The position numbers were made by a program, and so were the translations under genes. The notes under the pieces were generated by a model. That model saw only the letters and a program-made list of their open reading frames with translations. It had not been told where the DNA came from and made no database searches. Positions 21,598 through 53,274 of a stretch of DNA of 64,000 nucleotides are shown piece after piece. Origin of the DNA: Candidatus Levyibacteriota bacterium (GTDB taxonomy: Bacteria; Patescibacteriota; Microgenomatia; Levybacterales; UBA12049); assembly GCA_016199085.1 (NCBI GenBank), contig JACQHJ010000002.1, forward strand, positions 122,622-186,621, read 5' to 3'. Each line of letters begins with the position of its first letter. The stretch's first letter is position 1.

Positions 21598-22770
21598 TTA
21601 TTTTACCACAAGTTTTACAAAACGTTTCTTGCCAACCTTGAGAATTCCTTCTTCTAAAACCTGGTTTTGGTCGGTAATCTTTTTATCATTTACGGTTACC
21701 CCCCCTTGCTCTATCAGTCTCTTAGCTTCTGATTTGCTTTGGGAAAAATTTGCATTAACTAGAACTTCGGAAGCGGTCATATCCCTTCGCACAGTAATTG
21801 TATGTAGATTTTGGGGAACTTCTTTGTTTTGAACTGTTTTTTCAAATTCCTCTTTTGCTTTTTTAGCTGATTTCTCATCAACAAGCTCTTTAACTATTTC
21901 AAAAGCAAGCTCTTTTTTAATATCTCTTGGGTTTTCCTTTGATTTAAGTCTTTTTTCAAACCTTCCAACTTCCTCCAAGGAAAAATTGGTGGCTAGCATT
22001 AGATAATTTAAAATGAGATCATCATTTATCGCCATCACTTTTCTATAAATATCAAACGGCTTGTCATCAAGCCAGATAGCGTTTCCCCAGGATTTACTCA
22101 TTTTTCTTGTGTCGGTCCCTTCTAAAATTACCGTTGTTAAGACAAAAGATTCTTTCTCTTTTAAATCTCTTATTAACGCTCTTCCCGCCTGCATATTGAA
22201 AGTCTGATCTGTCCCACCAATCTGAAGGTCTGTGTCCATAAAATAGCTGTCATATCCCTGCATGACTGGATACAAAAACTCATGAAGCCCTACTCTTTTC
22301 CCATCAGTTAGTCTTTTTTTGATAAGTTCTCTTCCCACGAAGTCCCCTACTGAAAAATGCTGGGTCAGTTTTAAAATATCGACAAAGTTAAGTTTTTTTA
22401 ACCATTCACTGTTATATCTTACTTTAACCTTATTAAAATCCAGTATTTTTTCTGCCTGTTTTTTATATGTTTTGAAATTTTCCTCAATCTCTTCGATGGT
22501 TAACGCAGGTCTTTCAGAATCCTTATCGGAAGTGTCACCGATTAAAGCCGTAAAATCGCCTATTAAAAAAGTGACGTTTTGGCCCAAAAGCGCAAACTGG
22601 TTTAGCTTTCTAAGAACGACAGCATGTCCTAAATGGATTTTGGTTGAAGTTGGGTCAATTCCTAAATAGATGTTTAGTTTCTTTCCCGACATCAGTTTTC
22701 CGGCCAACATATTTTTGTTTGGAATGATGTTTGCGACACCCCTTGTTAAGATCTCTTCAACTTGCTTCAT
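21598..22770 (-). CDS. tyrS: Tyrosyl-tRNA synthetase.
   Basis: Class I HIGH-type (KIHLGH) and KMSKS motifs. C-terminal S4 domain. Confidence 0.9.
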   Translation of the reverse strand: MKQVEEILTRGVANIIPNKNMLAGKLMSGKKLNIYLGIDPTSTKIHLGHAVVLRKLNQFALLGQNVTFLIGDFTALIGDTSDKDSERPALTIEEIEENFKTYKKQAEKILDFNKVKVRYNSEWLKKLNFVDILKLTQHFSVGDFVGRELIKKRLTDGKRVGLHEFLYPVMQGYDSYFMDTDLQIGGTDQTFNMQAGRALIRDLKEKESFVLTTVILEGTDTRKMSKSWGNAIWLDDKPFDIYRKVMAINDDLILNYLMLATNFSLEEVGRFEKRLKSKENPRDIKKELAFEIVKELVDEKSAKKAKEEFEKTVQNKEVPQNLHTITVRRDMTASEVLVNANFSQSKSEAKRLIEQGGVTVNDKKITDQNQVLEEGILKVGKKRFVKLVVK

Positions 22771-22818
22771 AGCCTCAGTATAGCACAGTTTAGCTCAAAT
22801 TTGATATACTTTAGGAAT

Positions 22819-25215
22819 ATGTTTGATTACGCAAGGAAGTCAAGGAGAAGAAGTTCATATTTCACTCTTTCAATTCCAAATTTTGGAAGATTTGGGAAAT
22901 TTAATAACTTTTCAAATACCCCCAAAGATGTCTTGATAAGTAAGATTTTTAAGTATTCTTTTTTTGGTCTTATCGGCCTTATTCTCCTGATGGCGGTTTT
23001 GTTTATCTGGTACGGAAGAGATCTTCCTGCTCCAGGAAAGCTCGTTGAGGCCCAAGTTTCCCAGTCGAGTGGAATATATGATCGAAACGGAGAGCTTTTG
23101 TTTTCCGTCTACCAAAACCAGAACAGGATTTACGTAACTTTGGATAAGATACCCAAATTCTTAAGACAAGGGACAATAGCAATTGAAGACAAGAGTTTTT
23201 ATGAAAACGAAGGCTTTTCTATAACAGGTTATATAAGAGGGCTTATCATTGACCCGATACTTAGACAAAGGGTCACTGGAGGTTCTACAATCACCCAGCA
23301 GCTGGTTAAAAACGTTCTTCTAACATCGGAGCGAAGTTTGCCAAGAAAGATCAAGGAATTAATGCTTGCTATCCAAGTTGATCGAAAATACACCAAAGAT
23401 GAAATTTTGGAAATGTATTTAAATGACGTTCCATATGGCGGAACCGCCATTGGAGTCCAGGCAGCTTCCCAAATTTATTTTAATAAAGACGTCAAGGATC
23501 TAAATCTTGCCGAAAGCGCATTTTTGGCAGGCCTTCCTCAAAGCCCAAGTACTTATAGTCCATTTAGCGGTGACAAATATTATTTATCAAGAACAAAAAA
23601 CGTTTTGGCCCAAATGGAATCCCAGGGGTATATCACTAAAAAACAGGCAGAGAAAGCATATAAAGAAATTGAGAACAAAAAGTTTTCAGGAAGCGATATA
23701 GGTATAAAAGCTCCTCATTTTGTTATGTTTGTAAAGCAAGCTTTGGTTAAACAGTTTGGCGAATCAGCGGTTGAAAACGGAGGATTAAGAGTCACAACAA
23801 CCCTTGATTATAAAATCGAAAAAGAAGCTGAAAAAATTGTCAACGAAGAGATTAAGAAACTCAAAAACTATAAAGTAGGAAACGGAGCAGCCATGGTGAC
23901 AAACCCAAAAACCGGCGAGATTTTGGCAATGGTAGGAAGTGAAGATTATTTCAATACCGATAACGACGGAAACTTTAACGCTGCAGCAGGTTTTAGACAG
24001 CCTGGATCCTCATTAAAGCCGATAACTTACGCGGTTGCTTTTAGCAGGGGTTATACCCCCTCTACTCTTTTAATAGATTCTCAGACAAATTTTAAGGCAA
24101 ACGACGACGAAAAAGATTATATTCCGGTCAATTACGACGGTAAATACAGAGGTCCTGTTCAGGTAAGATTTGCTCTTGCAAACTCACTTAATGTCCCTGC
24201 CGTAAAAATGCTTTCAATGGTTGGTGTAAAAAACGTCATGCAAAAGGCCTATGAAATGGGAATAGATAACTGGCAGCCTACAGATGAGAATCTAAGAAAC
24301 GTCGGCTACTCTTTAGTTTTGGGAGGAAGAGATGTAAGACTTTTGGATGAAGTGGAAGCATACGGGGTTTTTGCAAACGGCGGACAAAAGCAATCTTTGG
24401 TTTCAATACTTGAAGTAAAAGATTCGAAAGGAAATACGCTTTACAAATATAACCAGCCCTCTCCGCAAAGAATATTTGGCGAGGACATAAGTTTTCTTAT
24501 CTCTCACATTTTGCTTGATAATACGGTAAGAAGTGCAACATTTGGTACAAATTCATATCTTGTAATACCCGGACACCCGAGCGTTTCGGTAAAAACAGGA
24601 ACAACGGATGAAAAAAGAGACAACTGGACAGTGGGATATACAAAGTCATTTGTCGTAGGTTCTTGGGTTGGAAATAATGACAATACGCCGATGGGAAACA
24701 TCACCTCCGGAGTAACTGGCGCAGCACCGATCTTTAACAGGCTGATGACATTTGTTCTTAAAGGTAAAGAAGACGAGCCATTTAACAAACCGGATAATGT
24801 CGAGGCGGCAATTATTGACGCATATGGAGGAGGAGCTCCTGTTGACGGAAAGCCGCAAAGAAGCGAATACTTTATCAAAGGAACACAGCCCTCCGGTCCT
24901 TCTAATATCTATCAGAAAATTAAGCTTTCAAAACATGACAACGGAAAACTTGCCAGTCCTTGGGAAATTGAACACGGACAATATGACACTAAAGATTACA
25001 TTGTCCTAAAAGAAGATGATCCGATTTCTCAGGATGGTAAAAACAGATGGATGGAGGGAATAACTGAATGGATAAAGAAAACTTATGCTGCAGATCACCC
25101 TGAATATTATCCACCGACAGAGACGTCTTCATATAAAGAAGAAGAGGGTTCAAGCGATACTCCAACGCCTACTCCATCGGAAACGCCTACCCCAACGTTA
25201 ACGCCTACTCCTTAA
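22819..25215 (+). CDS. Class A penicillin-binding protein (GT51 transglycosylase plus transpeptidase) with a C-terminal Thr/Pro repeat tail.
   Basis: EDKSFYENEGFS GT51 motif. SSLKP (SxxK), SxN and KTGT motifs. The tail is PTPTPSETPTPTLTPTP. The start was moved to MFDYARKSRRR to avoid overlapping the tyrS start; the ORF track begins at 22762. Confidence 0.9.
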   Translation: MFDYARKSRRRSSYFTLSIPNFGRFGKFNNFSNTPKDVLISKIFKYSFFGLIGLILLMAVLFIWYGRDLPAPGKLVEAQVSQSSGIYDRNGELLFSVYQNQNRIYVTLDKIPKFLRQGTIAIEDKSFYENEGFSITGYIRGLIIDPILRQRVTGGSTITQQLVKNVLLTSERSLPRKIKELMLAIQVDRKYTKDEILEMYLNDVPYGGTAIGVQAASQIYFNKDVKDLNLAESAFLAGLPQSPSTYSPFSGDKYYLSRTKNVLAQMESQGYITKKQAEKAYKEIENKKFSGSDIGIKAPHFVMFVKQALVKQFGESAVENGGLRVTTTLDYKIEKEAEKIVNEEIKKLKNYKVGNGAAMVTNPKTGEILAMVGSEDYFNTDNDGNFNAAAGFRQPGSSLKPITYAVAFSRGYTPSTLLIDSQTNFKANDDEKDYIPVNYDGKYRGPVQVRFALANSLNVPAVKMLSMVGVKNVMQKAYEMGIDNWQPTDENLRNVGYSLVLGGRDVRLLDEVEAYGVFANGGQKQSLVSILEVKDSKGNTLYKYNQPSPQRIFGEDISFLISHILLDNTVRSATFGTNSYLVIPGHPSVSVKTGTTDEKRDNWTVGYTKSFVVGSWVGNNDNTPMGNITSGVTGAAPIFNRLMTFVLKGKEDEPFNKPDNVEAAIIDAYGGGAPVDGKPQRSEYFIKGTQPSGPSNIYQKIKLSKHDNGKLASPWEIEHGQYDTKDYIVLKEDDPISQDGKNRWMEGITEWIKKTYAADHPEYYPPTETSSYKEEEGSSDTPTPTPSETPTPTLTPTP

Positions 25216-27136
25216 TTGTAGCTTTAAATTTTTCTTTTAAAACACTAATTACCTTTTCCCTTATTTTTGAGACCTCTTGATTTGTCAGATTCTTTTCAAA
25301 ATCCAGATAGACGATATGGAAAGTCCTAGTATCTTTGTAGGTGTCTTTAAGAGTAACCTCTGTAATAAGAGCGTCTTGGTTTTTAATTGTGTTTATCAAA
25401 TCCTGAGTTGAAGAGTCCGAAATAACAGAAATGTCTTCAACGATTGGTGGAAATTTTGCAAAGGGCTTAAATGTTTTTTTGTTTGAAGCATGTTTTAGTA
25501 TTGTTTCAAAATTTAACTCAAAATCAACAAGGTTTGTGTCTAGTACCTCTATCTCTCCAAGATAATCCTTTTCAATAAAGATTGATGCTCCAAGTCCACC
25601 CTTTTGTGACTTTTTAAAATCAACATTTTTGATTCCTAAATCTAATAATACCTGCTCGATAAATCCTTTTACCTCGTAAAAAGACGCATGTGGTTTTTTA
25701 TATATACCTGAAAGCATTTGCACCTCATTGGGTAAATCATTTTGTTTTTTTAAATAAATATTAGACAACTCAAAGACCCTAAGTTCGTCCAATCCTTTAT
25801 TATCTCTGACTACGTTTAAAAGACTTGGGATAAGTGAATTTCTCAAATATGCCATGTCTTCTGACAGCGGATTTTTAAGTTTTATCGCATCATCTATTGG
25901 TCCGTCAAATAATTCTTCTGAGATCAGTGAATATGTATAAACTTCTGTGAATCCAAAATATTTAAATGCATTTTTAGCTTTTTTTTCAAAGTAAAAATTA
26001 TCTGCAAAACCAACAACCTTATTCGACAAGAAGGTTGGGACAACGCTTGGAAGATTGTGATATCCATAAATCCTTGCGACTTCTTCTATTATATCTTCGT
26101 CTATTGAGACGTCAGCTCTAATGGGTGGAACAGTAATCTCAAGTATGCTCCCTGAGGCCTTGGCATTAAAACCTAATTTATTTAATATCTCAACCGAGGT
26201 TTTAGTTTCTAATTCAACGCCAATCACTTTTTTAATTTTTTCATGATCTACTTTGATTTTCTTCTCTTTTGGTTTATTGGGGTAAATGTCTAAAATCTCA
26301 GAAATTACTTTTCCTTTGGCAATTTTCTCATAAAGTTCAATGCCCCGAAGCAATGCTTTTAGGGAAAGTTCGGGATCAACGCCTTTTTCATTTAAGATTG
26401 CAGCTTCGCTTCTAATGCCCAAACTCATTGAAGTATTTCTGATATTTACTGGATTATTGTTATCAATAAAAAACATTATTTTCTTGGTATTTTGGGTAAC
26501 GACGGAATTTGCGGTTCCCATAACACCTAAAAGATCAATTATCTTTCCGGTTCCATCATCTGCAACTATATCTCCTCCCAAAAGTACGTGCGTTTTTCCA
26601 TCAAGCGTTGAAATCACTTCTCCCTTTTTGGCTTGTCTGATAATTATTTTTTTTGTATTTAATCTATCAAAATCAAAGACGTGTGTCGGATGACCTACCT
26701 CTCTCATGACATAATTGGTTACATCGATTAAATTATTTAGGCTTCTGATACCTGATTTTTCAAGTCTTTGGGAAATTTCTTTGGGACTATCCCCTATCTC
26801 AATCTCCAGGATAACCGCACAGATTCTATTTACAAGTTTTGGATCATTAACAATTTCAATGGGAAATTTATTAAAAGATTTTGGGAAAGATTTAATTTTA
26901 AGATCGTTGAATCTTGAGTTTTTTAAGACAGCCGATGCTTCTCTTGCGATCCCAATAACTGACATCAGATCCGGCCTATTGGTCGTAACCTCAATGTCGT
27001 AAATATCATCGTTTTCGACTTTTTCTATTTTTTCAACAGATACACTTGTTAAAGAAAGCTCAGTTGCAATATCTTTTACAGAGGTTTTAGTGTCTAGAAA
27101 TTCTCTTAACCAACTATCAACTATTTTTATATTCAT
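25205..27136 (-). CDS. pheT: Phenylalanyl-tRNA synthetase beta subunit (short form).
   Basis: B3/B4 and B5-like regions and a C-terminal FDX-ACB-like segment. Directly downstream of pheS. Confidence 0.85.
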   Translation of the reverse strand: MNIKIVDSWLREFLDTKTSVKDIATELSLTSVSVEKIEKVENDDIYDIEVTTNRPDLMSVIGIAREASAVLKNSRFNDLKIKSFPKSFNKFPIEIVNDPKLVNRICAVILEIEIGDSPKEISQRLEKSGIRSLNNLIDVTNYVMREVGHPTHVFDFDRLNTKKIIIRQAKKGEVISTLDGKTHVLLGGDIVADDGTGKIIDLLGVMGTANSVVTQNTKKIMFFIDNNNPVNIRNTSMSLGIRSEAAILNEKGVDPELSLKALLRGIELYEKIAKGKVISEILDIYPNKPKEKKIKVDHEKIKKVIGVELETKTSVEILNKLGFNAKASGSILEITVPPIRADVSIDEDIIEEVARIYGYHNLPSVVPTFLSNKVVGFADNFYFEKKAKNAFKYFGFTEVYTYSLISEELFDGPIDDAIKLKNPLSEDMAYLRNSLIPSLLNVVRDNKGLDELRVFELSNIYLKKQNDLPNEVQMLSGIYKKPHASFYEVKGFIEQVLLDLGIKNVDFKKSQKGGLGASIFIEKDYLGEIEVLDTNLVDFELNFETILKHASNKKTFKPFAKFPPIVEDISVISDSSTQDLINTIKNQDALITEVTLKDTYKDTRTFHIVYLDFEKNLTNQEVSKIREKVISVLKEKFKATIKE

Positions 27137-28182: not shown

Positions 28183-29517
28183 TTATAGCCTTGATATTTG
28201 TAAAAAACTAGTATAGTTTTCTTTGGCGTCTTGCAGATTATCCTCAACGACTCTTAGATTGTAGATCTGGGCAAGAATCTTACTACCAATAGTAGCAATA
28301 TTTTTCGATAGTTTTTTTTGAGAAAGATATTTTGCTACCATTGCATGATCTATTAAGTCTCCAGATCCAGAAAGTTGTTTTAAGTCGGGATATTTTCTTA
28401 ACAAAGTTTGCCCACATTGTGCAAAAACTTGTGGATGTGACATTATACTGTTTATTTCTTTTAAGTTTGCATCTTTTCTTATCATAAGAGCATGAGCGAT
28501 TTTTATCGAAAATTGATCCACAATATTAAATTTATATTTTGCCATTGCCACGATGCTTTCTTTTACGACCCCGCCTACGGCATTGTGAATGGCAAACTGC
28601 CCCCTATCAATCTCGCCTTTATGCAGTGAGGATAGCACATTTCCACTTGTATAGAGATATTTTACTCTGTAATTTTGGATTTTTGATTTTTTTATGTAAT
28701 AGAATAATGCTTCTTCATTAAAACTTCCCCTGCCTCCTTGAATACCAAAAGTTATATATTTAGGATTAATCTGTTTAGGCAATAATTTGTTATATAGCTT
28801 GTCAAACGAGATTCCCAGCTTGACCCGCACCTGCTTTGTATATGGATTATATTGCTGTAAATCGTTAAATAACTGCCAGGTGTCATTACACGTTTGTTGC
28901 ATAATATCTAATAATTTTTTTGCACCCAGTGAATCAATGTCGCTTTTTTGAAATTTATATTCATTAAGAAGCCTTCCAATAAAATGGGTTAATCCCTGAG
29001 AATTAGCTGCAATTTTATCGTGTTGCCCAGCAGACATCTCTATGACTTTTATTTTTTTATTTAAAAAATAATTCTTCCAAAATTTGTAATTTGCATCATC
29101 TGTTTTGAACTTATCTAAGATGATCGTATGTTTTTCAAATCCATCTTTTGTACTGTCGGGTCCAAACATTGGATGAGTAAGAAGTGCCTGAATATTTGTA
29201 TTTTTAAGATATTTCTCTAACACGTTTTGAGGGTGTATTTTTACAGATAATACATCAATGAGAAGATTTTTCTCAGTAAAATATTTTCCATGATCCCTGA
29301 TTACTTTCTCAAATTTTGAAATAGGTACGGCAAAAAACACAGCTTCACTTTTATAAACATTACTTAAATTAGTTTCGATAAAGGTGTGTTTGGAAAGATT
29401 AAGTCCTTTTGTATCTATCTTACTTTTGTTGTAAAGCAGAATTTTAAAATCATCTTTTATAAGACGATATAGGGTTTTGCCAAATCTGCCAAATCCGATA
29501 ATACTAACTTGTTTCAT
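28183..29517 (-). CDS. Bifunctional prephenate (or arogenate) dehydrogenase / prephenate dehydratase fusion, with no ACT domain.
   Basis: N-terminal Rossmann IIGFGRFG and HPMFGP TyrA signatures. The C-terminal PDT-like region has GIQGGRGSFNEEAL and an ENYTSF (TRF-like) motif. Confidence 0.7.
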   Translation of the reverse strand: MKQVSIIGFGRFGKTLYRLIKDDFKILLYNKSKIDTKGLNLSKHTFIETNLSNVYKSEAVFFAVPISKFEKVIRDHGKYFTEKNLLIDVLSVKIHPQNVLEKYLKNTNIQALLTHPMFGPDSTKDGFEKHTIILDKFKTDDANYKFWKNYFLNKKIKVIEMSAGQHDKIAANSQGLTHFIGRLLNEYKFQKSDIDSLGAKKLLDIMQQTCNDTWQLFNDLQQYNPYTKQVRVKLGISFDKLYNKLLPKQINPKYITFGIQGGRGSFNEEALFYYIKKSKIQNYRVKYLYTSGNVLSSLHKGEIDRGQFAIHNAVGGVVKESIVAMAKYKFNIVDQFSIKIAHALMIRKDANLKEINSIMSHPQVFAQCGQTLLRKYPDLKQLSGSGDLIDHAMVAKYLSQKKLSKNIATIGSKILAQIYNLRVVEDNLQDAKENYTSFLQISRL

Positions 29518-30673: not shown

Positions 30674-30949
30674 TTATTTTTCTTCACTTTCTATAGTAAG
30701 TGAATTTTTATGAATAAGTGTATATAGGTTTTTAATAAAGTCTTTGTCAAGATTTAAAGATTTTGCAATTAATATTCTTGATTCTAAAACCTCTTCCCAT
30801 CTTTTTTGATCAAGAGGCTTAATATTATTTTTTCTTTTAAGTTTTCCGATCTTTCGTACAACGCTTGCCCTTTTTGCCACGACAGATAAGAGTTCCCTAT
30901 CAATTTCGTCTATTTCCTTCCTTAATTTTTTTAACATAATTTTATTCAT
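30674..30949 (-). CDS. Chorismate mutase, AroQ class.
   Basis: 91 aa. LRKEIDEIDRELLSVVAKR...K...R matches the CM_2 helical pattern. Confidence 0.8.
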   Translation of the reverse strand: MNKIMLKKLRKEIDEIDRELLSVVAKRASVVRKIGKLKRKNNIKPLDQKRWEEVLESRILIAKSLNLDKDFIKNLYTLIHKNSLTIESEEK

Positions 30950-31707
30950 TAAATTCTTACCGCCTGGTCAAACTGATCCCAAGAAAGTTGTTGTAATTTA
31001 TCTGTCCAAGCTTCTTCTGGATTTGGATGAACCTCTATCATTAAGCCATCAAATCCTACACCGTTAATATTAAATTCTTGTGCTTGTTTTATGACATCTA
31101 ACACTTTTTCCCTAGTCCCACCCATATGTGATGGGTCAATTAACATGGGTAGTCCCGTTTCGGCTTTAACCTGCATAGCCATTTCGAAATCGGGATTATT
31201 TCTAAGACCATTTGTTCCAGGCGAAAAACCCCTATGACATAAAATTATTTGAGAAGAGTCTCCGCTACCGTTTACTACATGATCTACGATTCCTAACCAG
31301 TGTGATAAGTCTGGCCATGGTTGATTTTTGATTAGAACCTTCACGTGTCTCTCCCCTTTTGCGATTTCTCCGATGTGACGCTGAATTAAATGATTTTGAT
31401 TTCTTGAGCCAATCCAAATCAATACGTCTTTTCCTAAACCACCGGCAATCCTGTTCACCACTTGTTCAGCATTGCTTTCATTTAATACTTCTGTTGCAGG
31501 AGTTAAACCAAGTTGCGTAACCTCCTCAAGCCAGCTAATACCTGCTTCTTGTACTCCGTCAAATTCGGGTCTTGTTCTAGGTTTCCATAAACTTGCCCTA
31601 ACTATTTCAACACCGCGCTCTTTCGCCATGATGGCTGAAGCAAGAACTTGACTTCGCGATTCAGCGGCACACGGTCCTGCAATTATCATTCTATTTCTTT
31701 CAATCAT
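30949..31707 (-). CDS. DAHP synthase, type I-beta (KDO8PS-like fold).
   Basis: IIAGPCAAES, KPRTRP, DPSHMGG and LMIEVHPNP motifs. AGGAG ribosome-binding site 7 nt upstream of the ATG. Confidence 0.8.
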   Translation of the reverse strand: MIERNRMIIAGPCAAESRSQVLASAIMAKERGVEIVRASLWKPRTRPEFDGVQEAGISWLEEVTQLGLTPATEVLNESNAEQVVNRIAGGLGKDVLIWIGSRNQNHLIQRHIGEIAKGERHVKVLIKNQPWPDLSHWLGIVDHVVNGSGDSSQIILCHRGFSPGTNGLRNNPDFEMAMQVKAETGLPMLIDPSHMGGTREKVLDVIKQAQEFNINGVGFDGLMIEVHPNPEEAWTDKLQQLSWDQFDQAVRI

Positions 31708-31734
31708 ATTTATCTCCTTTCAAAATTTGACAAC

Positions 31735-31860
31735 AAAAAAACCTCCCGTTCGGGAGGTCTAATTTTTGCTTTTCAGCAATACGTTACCTCCCGGTTAGGG
31801 ATGTAAAGTAGAAATAAAAAGCTGCAAATTTATTCATCTCCAATAATATATCATATCATC
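31735..31860 (-). promoter_or_regulatory. Ribosome-mediated transcription attenuator upstream of the aro/phe operon (leader peptide, antiterminator, terminator).
   Basis: Terminator CCUCCC-GAAC-GGGAGG plus U7 lies 17 nt before the AGGAG/ATG of the DAHP synthase. An upstream CCGGGAGG copy (31787-31794) can pair with the 5' arm of the terminator. Confidence 0.6.
31784..31837 (-). CDS. Phe/Tyr-rich leader peptide MNKFAAFYFYFTSLTGR.
   Basis: 17-codon ORF in the leader. Its UAA stop abuts the CCGGGAGG antiterminator strand. A 6-codon mini-ORF MIYYWR (31834-31854) ends in an overlapping ATGA. Confidence 0.55.
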   Translation of the reverse strand: MNKFAAFYFYFTSLTGR

Positions 31861-32043
31861 TTTTAAAACACAACGGTTATTTTGAAAATAATAAAGTATA
31901 ATCCAGTAAATAATTAAATGAATACAAAACTTGATCTAAAAAATATTTCCAGTTTTACCGAATAAATTTATTACTCAATTATGCTTCTAGCTATTTATTT
32001 TAACTACGGGCCTCCTCTTTTTCTAAAAACACATCTAATATCA

Positions 32044-32073
32044 TTGACTTTGGGATAGATTTCTTGGTACAAT
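32044..32073 (+). promoter_or_regulatory. Sigma70-like promoter for the efflux operon (TTGACT, 18-nt spacer, TACAAT).
   Basis: -35 at 32044-32049 and -10 at 32068-32073, about 37 nt before ATG 32110. Confidence 0.4.
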
Positions 32074-32109
32074 CTTCCCCGCTGCCTCAAACTGCCTCTG
32101 TATTTATAT

Positions 32110-33594
32110 ATGAATAAGTTTATAAAAACTACAATTAATAAAGTTGTTAAAAAAGTTAAGAATTCTCTCTCTTTATCTAAAAAGAAAGTTTCCCCTTTTT
32201 ATAAAAGATTTATTATTTTTTCCAAAAGAAAGCCTATAACGGCTTTTTTAATGCTTTTGGCAGTCCTTTTCTCGTTAATAGTATTAAGCAATTTAATTAA
32301 CAGACCGGTGCCAGAGGTAGAAGAGGCGGGATTAACCACAAAAGACGTTTCAGTTTATACAATAGGTACTTCCCCCAAGATTAAAGTTCAGGCACAGGTA
32401 GAAAAATCCGGTGTAATTAAAATTGTTTCTTTGGGATCAGGCGTAGTCCAAGGTATTAATGTTTTTGTAGGACAACAGATATACAGGGGAACAAATCTTA
32501 TCTCCATGTCAACAAACTACCAGGGCGGAAACGCCTTCTCTTTGCAAAGACAACTTGCGCAAACCCAATATAAAAACGTTTTAGATACATACCAAGCCCA
32601 AAAAGACTTGATTGGAAAACAAAAAGAACTCGCAAATAAAAATGACGAAAATGCTGATGAGCTAAGAAGAATAGGAAGAGAGTCTTTGGATGATACAAGA
32701 GGACTTATAAATTTAAATAACGATATCTTAAATACTCTTTCTTTCAACCAATCCCAGTATGAGGCAACCAATTCAGGCGGAATGAATGATGCCCTGGTTT
32801 TACAAATGAAACAATTAAGGTCACAACTTTTAGCAGGAAATAACCAGCTTGAGTTAGCACTTAGAAATAGCGAGTATTCAACTTCCGATGATGAAGTTTT
32901 GGCAAATCTTTCAGATCTTGGAAAAGATATTGCGATAAGGCAACTTGATCTGCAGGAAAAAGCTTTGGATCTAAATAAGGAAGTATCAAGATTAAATGTA
33001 ATGCTGGCTCAAGTTAACGAAGCACTTATGTTTCCCTCGTCACCTGTCAACGGAGTTGTTGAAAGAATTTATGTAAGAGTTGGGCAAGTTCTAACCCCCG
33101 GAATGCCGATAGCCCAGGTTACCGGAGACAAAAGTTCATTAACGGCTACTGCATTTCTAAGTAGAGAAATAGCAGGATCGCTCTCGCAGGCTGAAATGTC
33201 CACTTTGTATTTTGGCAGTAAAACCTACGAGGAGGCACCTTTCTATGTATCGAAGGAGGCAACAGACGGAAGTCTGTATTCCGCACAGTTTAGTATTCCC
33301 GATGAATTTGCATCAGAGATTTCTGATAAAGGGTACATAACAATTGATATTCCTATTGGTTTCCCAAAGACAGGTTCGGCAGTTCCTTTTGTTCCCTTAG
33401 ACAGTATTTTCCAAACGCAAGATCAGGCTTTTGTCTATGTTGCAAAAGACCAGAAAGCGCAAAGCAAAAAAGTAATCTTAGGGCAAGTATTTGGAAGATT
33501 TGTAGAAATTGAGTCAGGTCTTTTGCCCTCAGATCAGGTAATTATAGACAGAAATGTCATTGAGGGAGACCCCGTCAGGATAGTCAAAAACTAA
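32110..33594 (+). CDS. Periplasmic adaptor / membrane-fusion protein (HlyD/AcrA-like).
   Basis: N-terminal TM helix. Long coiled-coil region. Beta-barrel C-terminus. Abuts the RND gene. Confidence 0.65.
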   Translation: MNKFIKTTINKVVKKVKNSLSLSKKKVSPFYKRFIIFSKRKPITAFLMLLAVLFSLIVLSNLINRPVPEVEEAGLTTKDVSVYTIGTSPKIKVQAQVEKSGVIKIVSLGSGVVQGINVFVGQQIYRGTNLISMSTNYQGGNAFSLQRQLAQTQYKNVLDTYQAQKDLIGKQKELANKNDENADELRRIGRESLDDTRGLINLNNDILNTLSFNQSQYEATNSGGMNDALVLQMKQLRSQLLAGNNQLELALRNSEYSTSDDEVLANLSDLGKDIAIRQLDLQEKALDLNKEVSRLNVMLAQVNEALMFPSSPVNGVVERIYVRVGQVLTPGMPIAQVTGDKSSLTATAFLSREIAGSLSQAEMSTLYFGSKTYEEAPFYVSKEATDGSLYSAQFSIPDEFASEISDKGYITIDIPIGFPKTGSAVPFVPLDSIFQTQDQAFVYVAKDQKAQSKKVILGQVFGRFVEIESGLLPSDQVIIDRNVIEGDPVRIVKN

Positions 33595-52884: not shown

Positions 52885-53073
52885 CAACATACAAAATAGG
52901 AAAACCTATTTTAATAAGTTTATTCTTTCTTTCATCCCGACTTTACGGTCGCTGTCTTAGTTTCAAAGACTCATGCTGTAAATTACAGCTCGTAGAGTTT
53001 ACTACCGATTTTGACTTACACAAAACCCCGAAAGAATAAATAGAGGATATTATATTTAAAGGAGGTTTGTCAA

Positions 53074-53160
53074 TGGTGCGGATGAGAGGACTCGAACCTC
53101 CACGCTTTTTAGGGCACAGCCACCTCAAGGCTGCGTGTATGCCAGTTTCACCACATCCGC
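53074..53160 (-). tRNA. tRNA-Leu (anticodon GAG).
   Basis: 87 nt. Long variable arm. Anticodon loop TTGAGGT. Encoded CCA. Confidence 0.85.
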
Positions 53161-53190
53161 AAAGCCTAACTATATTTTATCACAAATTTG

Positions 53191-53274
53191 TGCCCAGAGG
53201 GAGAGTCGAACTCCCACGTCCTTTAGGGACACAGCGTCCTGAACGCTGCGTGTCTACCATTTCACCACCTGGGC
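53191..53274 (-). tRNA. tRNA-Leu (anticodon CAG).
   Basis: 84 nt. Long variable arm. Anticodon loop TTCAGGA. Confidence 0.85.

Follow-up and report, generated by a model that had tools for sequence, protein, structure and literature searches.

A probable Phe/Tyr-responsive leader-peptide attenuator in front of the aro/phe/tyr-pheST operon of Candidatus Levybacteria

Does a short, aromatic-rich open reading frame followed by a hairpin, lying just upstream of a DAHP synthase (DAHPS) gene, form a ribosome-mediated attenuator in a bacterium with a reduced genome? The locus lies in a 64,000-nt stretch of DNA (the window) that, judged by its proteins, comes from a Candidatus Levybacteria MAG (CPR, Microgenomates), in line with the CPR-like genome assumed in a preliminary description. 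That description had proposed a classical Phe/Tyr attenuator in front of an operon encoding DAHPS, chorismate mutase, an aminotransferase, TyrA/PheA and PheST, and the proposal is supported by pairing energies, by conservation of the codon run, and by compensatory change in relatives. We consider it very likely that the element is a ribosome-mediated transcription attenuator which regulates the aro/phe/tyr-pheST operon by sensing the charged forms of tRNA-Phe and tRNA-Tyr. Its parts, as read from the sequence and from the computed folds, are as follows.

31873-31868, - strand: candidate -35 hexamer TTGTGT, weak (3/6 matches), 17 nt upstream of the candidate -10 element
31853-31845, - strand: candidate extended -10 element TGaTATATT, ending 7 nt before the leader ATG; predicted, like the -35 hexamer, from sequence
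31837-31784, - strand: leader-peptide ORF of 17 codons plus UAA, with ATG at 31837 and TAA at 31786-31784; product MNKFAAFYFYFTSLTGR
31822-31798, - strand: region 1, the 5′ half of the 1:2 "protector" hairpin, overlapping the aromatic codons and pairing with 31792-31768 in both the MFE and the centroid structure
31819-31805, - strand: regulatory codon run UUU UAU UUC UAC UUU (F-Y-F-Y-F, codons 7-11), the proposed stall sites
31794-31787, - strand: region 2, CCGGGAGG, in the last leader codons directly before UAA; 5′ strand of the antiterminator, pairing with CCUCCCG(G)
31779-31766, - strand: small spacer hairpin UUGC-UGAAAA-GCAA inside the antiterminator loop, present in the antiterminator and terminator states alike
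31759-31740, - strand: intrinsic terminator hairpin GACCUCCC-GAAC-GGGAGGUU, with 9 pairs, 5 of them G-C; region 3 at 31757-31751, region 4 at 31748-31742
31741-31735, - strand: U7 tract of the terminator, read from the sequence and from the terminator scan
31718-31705, - strand: AGGAG Shine-Dalgarno (31718-31714) and ATG (at 31707) of the DAHPS gene, free of terminator pairing
31707-25205, - strand: six-gene operon (ORF calls and Pfam)
31707-30949, - strand: DAHPS (PF00793)
30949-30674, - strand: chorismate mutase (ORF and Pfam, as for the four genes below)
30671-29514, - strand: aminotransferase
29517-28183, - strand: prephenate dehydrogenase-dehydratase fusion (TyrA/PheA)
28173-27139, - strand: PheS
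27136-25205, - strand: PheT

The sequence elements on which the proposal was built are present: the 17-codon ORF carries six aromatic residues in eight positions (4-11 of MNKFAAFYFYFTSLTGR), its UAA abuts a region 2 able to pair with CCUCCCG, and the hairpin CCUCCC-GAAC-GGGAGG with its U7 tract was also called independently by a terminator scan. The terminator is not that of a preceding gene, since the neighbouring ORF diverges on the + strand. It ends 32 nt before the DAHPS ATG, so that control would be transcriptional rather than by Shine-Dalgarno masking; the U-run lies 16 nt from the AGGAG, and not 17 nt as first given. The gene content of the operon was borne out as well, with gaps or overlaps between adjacent genes of at most 9 nt and no terminators found between the six genes.

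The comparison of the two alternative pairings, proposed with the original description, gave -20.9 kcal/mol for the antiterminator (2:3), which is the local MFE of leader nt 44-88, versus -14.4 kcal/mol for the terminator (3:4); the two share region 3 and are mutually exclusive. The 1:2 hairpin amounts to -18.5 kcal/mol. The 105-nt leader as a whole folds at -33.6 kcal/mol, compared with -18.6 +/- 2.8 for 200 dinucleotide shuffles (z -5.45, 0/200 as good), and the duplex of regions 2 and 3 by itself yields -13.4 kcal/mol (z -4.9, again 0/200 shuffles as good). When region 1 was masked as by a ribosome stalled at codons 8, 9 or 11, the antiterminator became the MFE fold, while a stall at codon 7 or 10 left the terminator in the full-length MFE; with region 4 still untranscribed, the antiterminator was the MFE for every stall position. 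Region 2 begins 11 nt past the last aromatic codon.

From these elements we infer the following sequence of events, in which leader translation, the transcription start, stalling and termination are all predicted. Transcription would initiate from TTGTGT-17-TGaTATATT-7 nt-AUG, at or a few nt from the leader AUG, and a ribosome would translate the 17-codon ORF. With Phe-tRNA and Tyr-tRNA both plentiful, it would reach the UAA and cover region 2, allowing CCUCCCG (region 3) to pair with CGGGAGG (region 4), so that RNA polymerase would stop at the U7 tract. Should either charged tRNA become scarce, the ribosome would stall on the F-Y-F-Y-F codons, melting the 1:2 hairpin and leaving region 2 free to capture region 3 as it emerges; no terminator would then form, and the six genes would be transcribed. 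In a transcript that is not translated at all, the 1:2 and 3:4 hairpins would both form, and transcription would terminate. That the switch responds to both Phe and Tyr is our assumption.

Conservation of the aromatic codon run in relatives, one of the checks suggested at the outset, was evident. Among 75 loci that encode related DAHP synthases and have enough upstream DNA, 69 contain a leader ORF rich in F/Y/W with a terminator after it, and a terminator lies 3′ of 91 of the 92 candidate leaders. Leaders with F/Y/W runs occur at related DAHPS loci that include L001 (78% identity), L003 (47%) and 80 metagenomic loci, and the unit is kept down to 45-47% DAHPS identity, with differing nucleotide sequences. 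The leader of L001, MNRLTAFYFYFTSLTGR, is nearly identical to that in the window, and the truncated locus L004 has a leader ending in ...LTAFYFYFTSLTGR. In a search of both strands of 472 kb of related DNA, 80 of the 87 hits to an F/Y-rich ORF plus terminator fell within 500 nt upstream of a DAHPS gene. Among 74 units, the commonest run motif is FYFYF(Y); the only codons enriched in the run are those for Phe, Tyr and Trp (TTT 210, TTC 36, TAT 102, TAC 65, TGG 24), with synonymous U/C variation at third positions, and many units among the CPR relatives are arranged in tandem. Five loci with related DAHP synthases showed no leader in the 450 nt upstream of the gene, and L084, from a MAG labelled Bacteroidetes with a DAHPS 53% identical, has a tRNA gene upstream and no leader, so that some members of this DAHPS family occur without the element.

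The antiterminator is conserved along with the terminator. In 74 non-redundant units, the predicted pairing was better than 95% of shuffles in 62 and better than 99% in 51; in 12 units it was no better than 5% of shuffles. Region 2 was paired upstream in the MFE of 46 of the 74 units. Two classes of stems could be compared: region-2 areas of the CCUCCC class gave -12.1 versus own-class arms and -6.0 versus the other class, and those of the CCCCGC class gave -10.1 versus own-class and -7.9 versus CCUCCC arms. In an uncurated MAFFT alignment of 32 units, where paired percentages are lower bounds, 80.5% of cells were paired in the terminator (0/500 shuffles as high) and 69.5% in the antiterminator (2/500 as high). 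Compensatory change, also looked for as originally suggested, was found in this alignment: column 130 (C/U) covaries with the G/A position that it pairs with in region 4 and likewise with the one in region 2, and region 2 and both arms of the terminator vary in concert. The geometry is fixed in relation to the codon run rather than to the stop codon: region 2 follows the last aromatic codon after a median of 9 nt (IQR 8-11), although its position with respect to the stop varies by about 40 nt and always falls between -27 and +15 nt. Where the C-terminal tail is long, region 2 is 19-27 nt before the stop; in such units a terminating ribosome would not cover it, and re-formation of the 1:2 hairpin must be invoked.

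How the leader might be translated is suggested by its promoter. A promoter scan did not call a leader promoter in the window, because the -35 element is weak, and the proposal for the window rests on the extended -10 and on the relatives, which have TTGACA or TTGAAT as the -35 at the same spacing. The -10 element ends 7 nt before the leader ATG also in L001, L003, L026 and L042, and 6-11 nt before it in 32 of 45 promoter-bearing first leaders, compared with 0.7% at random anchor positions. SD-like 4-mers accompany leaders in only 10 of 60 cases, and the downstream leaders of tandem loci lack both a promoter and a clear SD. The GGAG next to the leader AUG was considered as its Shine-Dalgarno and discarded, being 0-1 nt from the AUG, which is too close, and missing from the relatives. 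Promoter geometry points instead to a transcript that probably begins at, or a few nt from, the AUG, giving an mRNA that is leaderless or nearly so; without a usable Shine-Dalgarno, translation of the leader would depend on leaderless initiation. We found no paper on leaderless initiation in CPR bacteria (Patescibacteria) in a search with incomplete literature coverage. An additional mini-ORF, MIYYWR plus stop (31854-31834, - strand), had been suggested to be translationally coupled to the leader. It exists, and was set aside as a chance occurrence: the closest relative, L001, has no counterpart, and the mini-ORF starts in the predicted promoter spacer, upstream of the likely transcription start, which makes coupling unlikely.

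Of the competing explanations, the one that fares best, and is still improbable, accepts the terminator/antiterminator switch as real and assigns it a different driver, namely uncharged tRNA in a T-box-like manner, a small-molecule riboswitch, or a Phe/Tyr-binding protein resembling TRAP or PyrR, with the ORF being incidental. The leader has no Shine-Dalgarno, its translation is inferred, and the U-rich codon runs could be read as an RNA motif that builds the 1:2 stem. The preliminary description assumed T-box control to be the expected mechanism, but the window contains no T-box. In Rfam searches, no family reached its gathering score in the 64-kb window or in 20 related loci, the T-box (RF00230) included, and neither T-box nor riboswitch models matched the 601-nt region at 31600-32200 at E <= 10. 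A T-box likewise couples tRNA charging to a choice between terminator and antiterminator upstream of amino-acid and aaRS genes, but the window element is only about 105 nt long, contains a predicted translated ORF, and lacks a Stem I, a specifier loop and a T-box sequence. Driving by the ribosome is favoured by the in-frame ATG at a fixed distance from the promoter, by a frame that stays open for 9-27 codons despite AT-rich DNA, and by the 9-nt distance from codon run to region 2, which fits a ribosome footprint. Furthermore, UGG (Trp) replaces UUY or UAY within the run, as befits aromatic amino acids and not an RNA motif, and leaders of Ile/Leu/Val (I/L/V) type with the same layout precede other operons.

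It is less probable still that the ORF product is a small peptide, hydrophobic or aromatic, with a function of its own (e.g. a membrane or signalling peptide), with the hairpin as its own constitutive terminator or insulator, and with DAHPS expressed by read-through or from another promoter. Small aromatic-rich peptides do exist, and the promoter, ORF and terminator together resemble a complete mini-gene. Nevertheless, neither sequence nor length is conserved outside the aromatic run; the C-termini are determined by the complementarity of the RNA to the terminator (GGGAGG yielding "GR", and GCGGGG yielding "CGG"), and the position of the stop relative to region 2 is the mobile one. Within the window, the stretch from the leader terminator to the DAHPS gene showed no promoter-like site in the promoter scan, the unit is linked almost exclusively to DAHPS operons, and a plain terminator would have no role for the conserved alternative pairing. 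Finally, chance juxtaposition of an F/Y-rich ORF and an ordinary terminator in U-/AT-rich intergenic DNA can be dismissed as hardly credible: UUU and UAU codons are frequent in a genome with about 37% G+C, and 4/6 aromatic residues are reached by 6.6% of shuffled upstream regions, but at least 5/6 are found in 64 of 75 loci versus 0.7% of shuffles, which, together with the fold z-score and the retention of the unit in diverged sequences, already refutes it.

Comparison with described systems places the attenuator, our preferred reading, close to E. coli pheL-pheA (Rfam RF01859, Phe_leader). In both, Phe codons are abundant in the short leader, a 1:2 hairpin spans the regulatory codons, region 2 is of the GGGAGG type and next to the stop, the terminator is a CCUCCC/GGGAGG stem with a U-run, and the regulated gene is one of the Phe branch. 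The window unit aligns over the full length of the RF01859 model at 41.3 bits, below the gathering score of 55, and so do 10 of 12 relatives, also below threshold (30.7-47.2 bits, the window included). Whereas the pheL run is of Phe alone, Phe alternates with Tyr in the CPR runs, some of which include Trp; in addition, the CPR unit has no Shine-Dalgarno, its mRNA is probably leaderless, DAHPS is the first gene, and the host is not a gammaproteobacterium. The likeness to pheL is probably convergent, because other subfamilies use CCCCGC/GCGGGG stems. In E. coli pheM-pheST, the genes for phenylalanyl-tRNA synthetase are under attenuation by a leader with many Phe codons, as cited in PMC11802643 and PMC1262725. 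The comparison, made by description, is that the attenuated operon of the window ends with pheS and pheT; there, in contrast to pheM-pheST, a single attenuator serves both biosynthetic and synthetase genes.

The functionally nearest described system, again compared by description, is aroR-aroF of the actinobacterium Corynebacterium glutamicum, in which a leader peptide with a Phe-Tyr-Phe motif is located directly upstream of the DAHPS gene aroF (Neshat et al. 2014, as related in PMC11802643 and PMC7356990), much as the FYFYF leader precedes the PF00793 DAHPS in the window. The aroR attenuator responds to Phe limitation only and not to Tyr, according to PMC11802643. In comparison with aroR, the CPR runs are longer (FYFYF or FYFYFY) and often in tandem, and pheST is also controlled in the window. 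Leaderless leader peptides have precedents in Deinococcus deserti and in mycobacteria, where the ORF begins at or 1 nt from the transcription start with no Shine-Dalgarno, ahead of genes for amino-acid biosynthesis or tRNA synthetases (PMC4007540; bioRxiv 10.1101/834739). In those organisms the starts were mapped experimentally, whereas in the CPR units they are deduced from promoter position. We found no literature on the use of T-boxes or attenuators in CPR bacteria (Patescibacteria), which, given incomplete coverage, is weak evidence of novelty.

The genes behind the leaders suit the signal, DAHPS being combined either with the Phe/Tyr branch plus pheST or tyrS, or with the common shikimate genes. 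Searches by tblastn with the operon proteins of the window recognised downstream genes in a minority of loci only; in a sample of the remaining loci, Pfam identified aroB, aroQ, aroA and aroK. In L003 and L086, the position of pheST is taken by a gene for a class-I aminoacyl-tRNA synthetase of the Trp/Tyr family (PF00579), probably tyrS. The DAHPS of the window is a bare catalytic domain (252 aa, with Pfam coverage of residues 6-248), and Pfam detected no ACT domain after the prephenate dehydratase half of the fusion protein. Allosteric inhibition of type I-beta DAHP synthases and of PheA is normally carried by these missing parts; attenuation may thus possibly be the main feedback control of the pathway.

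The window also contains a second candidate leader attenuator, of the I/L/V type, at 47895-47798. The conserved operon behind I/L/V leaders (47790-41402 in the window) encodes two unknown proteins, a racemase-like protein of the enolase superfamily and an M20 deacylase, and these sibling leaders tie this operon of unknown function to branched-chain amino-acid supply.

Overall, this uncultured lineage with its reduced genomes appears to make regular use of a ribosome-stalling switch of the E. coli type, judging from the presence of the design in about 70 related metagenomic loci. We are somewhat inclined to go further and view leader-peptide attenuation from leaderless or near-leaderless mRNAs as a general strategy of the Microgenomates-group CPR, extending over the aromatic, Ile/Leu/Val, Ile (ilvA) and Leu pathways. 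The mechanism itself is textbook, and the advance lies in its taxonomic reach and usefulness rather than in concept. As the unit is unannotated and lies outside Rfam 15, it could seed a new RNA family, and the short terminated transcript ending at the U7 tract could serve as its marker in metatranscriptomes. Leader-peptide attenuation works only with a ribosome close behind RNA polymerase, and the approximately 70 conserved units, together with those of I/L/V type, therefore constitute indirect evidence for coupled transcription-translation in Levybacteria and their relatives, which cannot yet be grown alone; they are probably evidence for leaderless initiation too. If leader-peptide attenuation is indeed such a general strategy, transcription and translation would be tightly coupled and leaderless initiation would be efficient in this uncultured lineage, and the leaders could be used to assign function to operons of unknown role, such as the one behind the I/L/V leaders.

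On the minus strand of positions 31500-32300 we found the leader ORF, the 5′ strand of the antiterminator near its stop codon (region 2) and the terminator (its arms being regions 3 and 4), all as the preliminary description had them when it proposed a Phe/Tyr leader-peptide attenuator in front of a DAHP synthase operon. The hairpin was returned independently by a consensus terminator scan, and downstream lie six close-packed minus-strand ORFs, assigned with Pfam:

31837 (ATG) to 31786-31784 (TAA), minus: leader ORF, MNKFAAFYFYFTSLTGR
31794-31787, minus: region 2, CCGGGAGG, the leader's last codons
31759-31740, minus: terminator hairpin, GACCUCCC-GAAC-GGGAGGUU
31741-31735, minus: U7 after the hairpin
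31718-31714, minus: AGGAG, 16 nt past U7
31707, minus: ATG of the 252-aa DAHP synthase ORF
30949-31707, minus: gene 1, DAHP synthase, PF00793 over residues 6-248 of 252
gene 2, minus: chorismate mutase
gene 3, minus: class I/II aminotransferase
28183-29517, minus: gene 4, prephenate dehydrogenase-prephenate dehydratase (PDH-PDT) fusion without ACT domain
gene 5, minus: PheS
25205-27136, minus: gene 6, PheT, short (643 aa)

Positions 4-11 of the leader peptide hold six aromatic residues. The terminator indeed precedes the AGGAG/ATG, at a spacing of 16 nt instead of the 17 claimed, and, because the neighbouring upstream ORF (32110-33594, plus strand) is divergent, it ends no gene besides the mini-ORF. 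The DAHP synthase, PheS, aminotransferase, fusion protein and an RND pump match proteins of one Candidatus Levybacteria MAG at 100% (accessions within MBI3984631-637), and, as the accessions from aminotransferase to pump leave no slot for it, the leader peptide is apparently unannotated in the record. The host was correctly called CPR-like, Candidatus Levybacteria being part of the Microgenomates group of Patescibacteria/CPR. The DAHP synthase is a bare catalytic domain and the fusion stops after the PDT domain, so that the usual allosteric feedback modules seem to be missing from both, in contrast to the related locus L086, where a separate PDT carries an ACT domain. The short PheT adjoins a PBP1A-type transglycosylase/transpeptidase with a Pro/Thr-rich tail (22762-25215, plus); the same adjacency on opposite strands occurs in L086 (1-3794), with a PheT of 670 aa whose gene runs off the locus end.

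The 105-nt leader folds with a minimum free energy (MFE) of -33.6 kcal/mol, versus -18.6 ± 2.8 for shuffles (z = -5.45), into two elements: a long hairpin (-18.5) between the aromatic codons (region 1) and the GGGAGG...AAAAGC segment, and the terminator (-14.4). Masking region 1 to mimic a stalled ribosome whose A site holds codon 8, 9 or 11 brings up the 2:3 antiterminator with an inner hairpin (-20.9) in place of the terminator; with stalls at codons 7 and 10 the terminator is retained in the full-length MFE structure. RNA lacking the not yet transcribed region 4 adopts the antiterminator fold at every stall position. As modelled, this is the classical four-region attenuator layout.

We searched for relatives of the DAHP synthase in GTDB species genomes and JGI metagenomes, with one scan each, and found 83 loci at 45-83% identity. 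The leader of L001 (78% identity), MNRLTAFYFYFTSLTGR, differs by a synonymous UUC-to-UUU change and keeps the stems of the window, while that of L003 (47%), MNTKAQTFYYFYFKTV, is accompanied by stems quite unlike them, namely a duplex of GGAGGGUU and AACCCUC and a terminator of the form CCCUC...GAGGG. In a script search, ATG-initiated ORFs with aromatic runs appeared in nearly every locus, and 91 of 92 candidate leaders had a terminator downstream, nearly always 10-60 nt past the stop. Upstream DNA extended for 238 nt or more in 75 loci, and 69 of them have the complete unit, an F/Y/W-rich leader ORF plus terminator; the aromatic codon run was kept, with at least five aromatic residues in six in 64 of the 75 loci versus 0.7% of dinucleotide shuffles. 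Truncated loci retain remnants (L004, ...LTAFYFYFTSLTGR). Matches to an F/Y ORF plus terminator, scanned over both strands of 472 kb of related DNA, fell less than 500 nt upstream of the DAHP synthase gene in 80 of 87 cases. Five loci have no leader within 450 nt upstream of this gene, and none precedes it in a MAG labelled Bacteroidetes. L068, one of these five, has an F/Y unit, MKTTRWFFRYYFTS, with a terminator at 713 (plus), about 1.1 kb upstream; its DAHP synthase gene may be the second of an attenuated operon.

For each of 74 non-redundant units we took the strongest pairing of the terminator 5′ arm with the surroundings of the stop codon; the median was -10.7 kcal/mol, and the pairing was stronger than 95% of shuffles in 62 cases and than 99% in 51. 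The stems fall into several classes (CCUCCC, CCCCGC, CCCUC, CCUUCC, AACAGCUCCC and others), and region 2 prefers arms of its own class over foreign ones (-12.1 vs -6.0 for CCUCCC, -10.1 vs -7.9 for CCCCGC). When 32 units were aligned with MAFFT, without curation, 80.5% of terminator cells and 69.5% of antiterminator cells were paired, with covariation scores matched by 0 and 2 of 500 shuffles, respectively. Changes between C and U in column 130 covary with G/A in its partners in both region 4 and region 2, a three-way compensation. The compensatory stem changes sought in relatives do occur, and the alternative pairing is conserved and covarying across units.

The start of region 2 ranges from 27 nt before to 5 nt after the stop codon, but its gap from the last aromatic codon hardly varies (median 9 nt, IQR 8-11), as a ribosome-footprint mechanism predicts; a near-fixed gap with a wandering stop argues that the codon run, rather than the peptide, is under selection. 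Enrichment is limited to Phe, Tyr and Trp codons (TTT 210, TTC 36, TAT 102, TAC 65, TGG 24), the third positions of which vary synonymously, and the peptide C-termini are mere translations of the strand complementary to the terminator. With such strong comparative support for the main interpretation, the window unit is very probably a functional Phe/Tyr-responsive leader-peptide transcription attenuator, as judged from sequence.

No workable Shine-Dalgarno sequence serves the leader: the GGAG of the window lies right against the AUG, none exists in L001, and just 10 of 60 first leaders have an SD-like 4-mer. Directly upstream lies a sigma-70-like promoter, which in L001, L003, L026 and L042 reads TTGACA/TTGAAT-17-TATAAT-like-7 nt-ATG and was found in 45 of 62 first leaders; in 32 of these 45 the -10 element ends 6-11 nt before the ATG, versus 0.7% at random anchor positions. 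The window candidate, TTGTGT-17-TGaTATATT-7 nt-ATG, combines a poor -35 with an extended -10. Since the promoter sits just before an ATG without SD, the leader mRNA would probably be leaderless or nearly so. Mapped leaderless mRNAs for 14 leader peptides are described in Deinococcus deserti (PMC4007540), and others are mentioned for mycobacteria. The mini-ORF MIYYWR (31854-31834), to which a possible role in translational coupling had been ascribed, is present, but it starts inside the predicted promoter and so would not be transcribed on the leaderless reading; it is absent from L001.

In most loci the unit precedes the DAHP synthase and common shikimate genes (aroB, aroQ, aroA, aroK), and in others the DAHP synthase with PDH, PDT, chorismate mutase and aminotransferase genes, pheST coming last. 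The last gene of L003 and L086 encodes a class-I Trp/Tyr-family aminoacyl-tRNA synthetase (PF00579) and is probably tyrS. About 12 loci carry tandem units before the DAHP synthase (L009, L014, L022, L023, L024, L027, L034, L035, L048, L060, L077 and the L038 family), the downstream leader being of the type MKxKLVLKFYFYFYPA; this second unit had a promoter in 0 of 11 cases and usually lacked an SD.

When every terminator in the window was examined, a second candidate attenuator emerged:

47935-47798, minus: whole candidate
47935-47930 (TTGACA) to 47895 (ATG), minus: promoter, TTGACA-17-TATCAT-11 nt-ATG
47895 (ATG) to 47856-47854 (stop), minus: leader, MKSMFMVILLVNP
47821-47798, minus: terminator, CCGCCCC-AAAT-GGGCGG-U7

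Here CGGGCGGAG directly follows the leader stop, and 9 nt separate the last hydrophobic codon from region 2, as in F/Y units. The operon behind it (ORFs 47790-41402, minus) encodes a 557-aa protein with no assigned function, a 505-aa protein weakly resembling GCS2, a member of the enolase superfamily recognised by the menC_lowGC (o-succinylbenzoate synthase) model, an M20 ArgE/DapE-family deacylase and a 328-aa protein with no assigned function. The layout of the unit suggests that branched-chain or hydrophobic amino acids control what may be a salvage pathway for N-acyl or D-amino acids. The 557-aa protein has only 7 homologues among 5.8 billion proteins, and their loci preserve the gene order (unknown, unknown, MR_MLE, M20). 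I/L/V-rich leaders followed by terminators occur there too: ...FISLIIWVLLF... in L087, MMKTDSLNLNIIVLSVLVIIVTNSLGGLFR in L088 and MNKNLLLAKLGLLLGV in L089. In L089 ilvA-ridA is also preceded by an Ile leader, MNQNLQLIDIIIPS; the positions noted for these loci are 1197 and 1694 in L087, 2112 in L088, and 1135 and 2877 in L089. A generic filter (promoter with its -10 end 5-11 nt before ATG, short ORF, terminator and antiterminator) gave 46 matches: 41 leaders of F/Y and four of I/L/V type, plus one alternate-frame duplicate. With both leader types found, predicted leader-peptide attenuation appears to be used more than once in the lineage. The window also contains an FMN riboswitch (RF00050, 86 bits; 52920-53039, minus), and the genome therefore uses riboswitches besides predicted attenuators; tRNA genes lie nearby (53077-53274), and more between 41271 and 51885.

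In its proposed function the unit resembles E. coli pheL-pheA and, as pheST belongs to the window operon, pheM-pheST. Functionally closest among described systems is C. glutamicum aroR, described as an F-Y-F leader ahead of the DAHP synthase gene aroF (PMC11802643, PMC7356990). The enterobacterial Phe_leader model RF01859 aligns end to end with the window unit; at 41.3 bits (30.7-47.2 in relatives), below the curated gathering score of 55, membership was rejected, and no Rfam 15 family captures the unit. Our literature search found nothing on leader peptides, attenuation or leaderless mRNA in Patescibacteria/CPR. Leader-peptide attenuation is itself a textbook mechanism; the interest lies in its reach into CPR bacteria, in what it implies for transcription-translation coupling there, and in the use of the unit for annotation.
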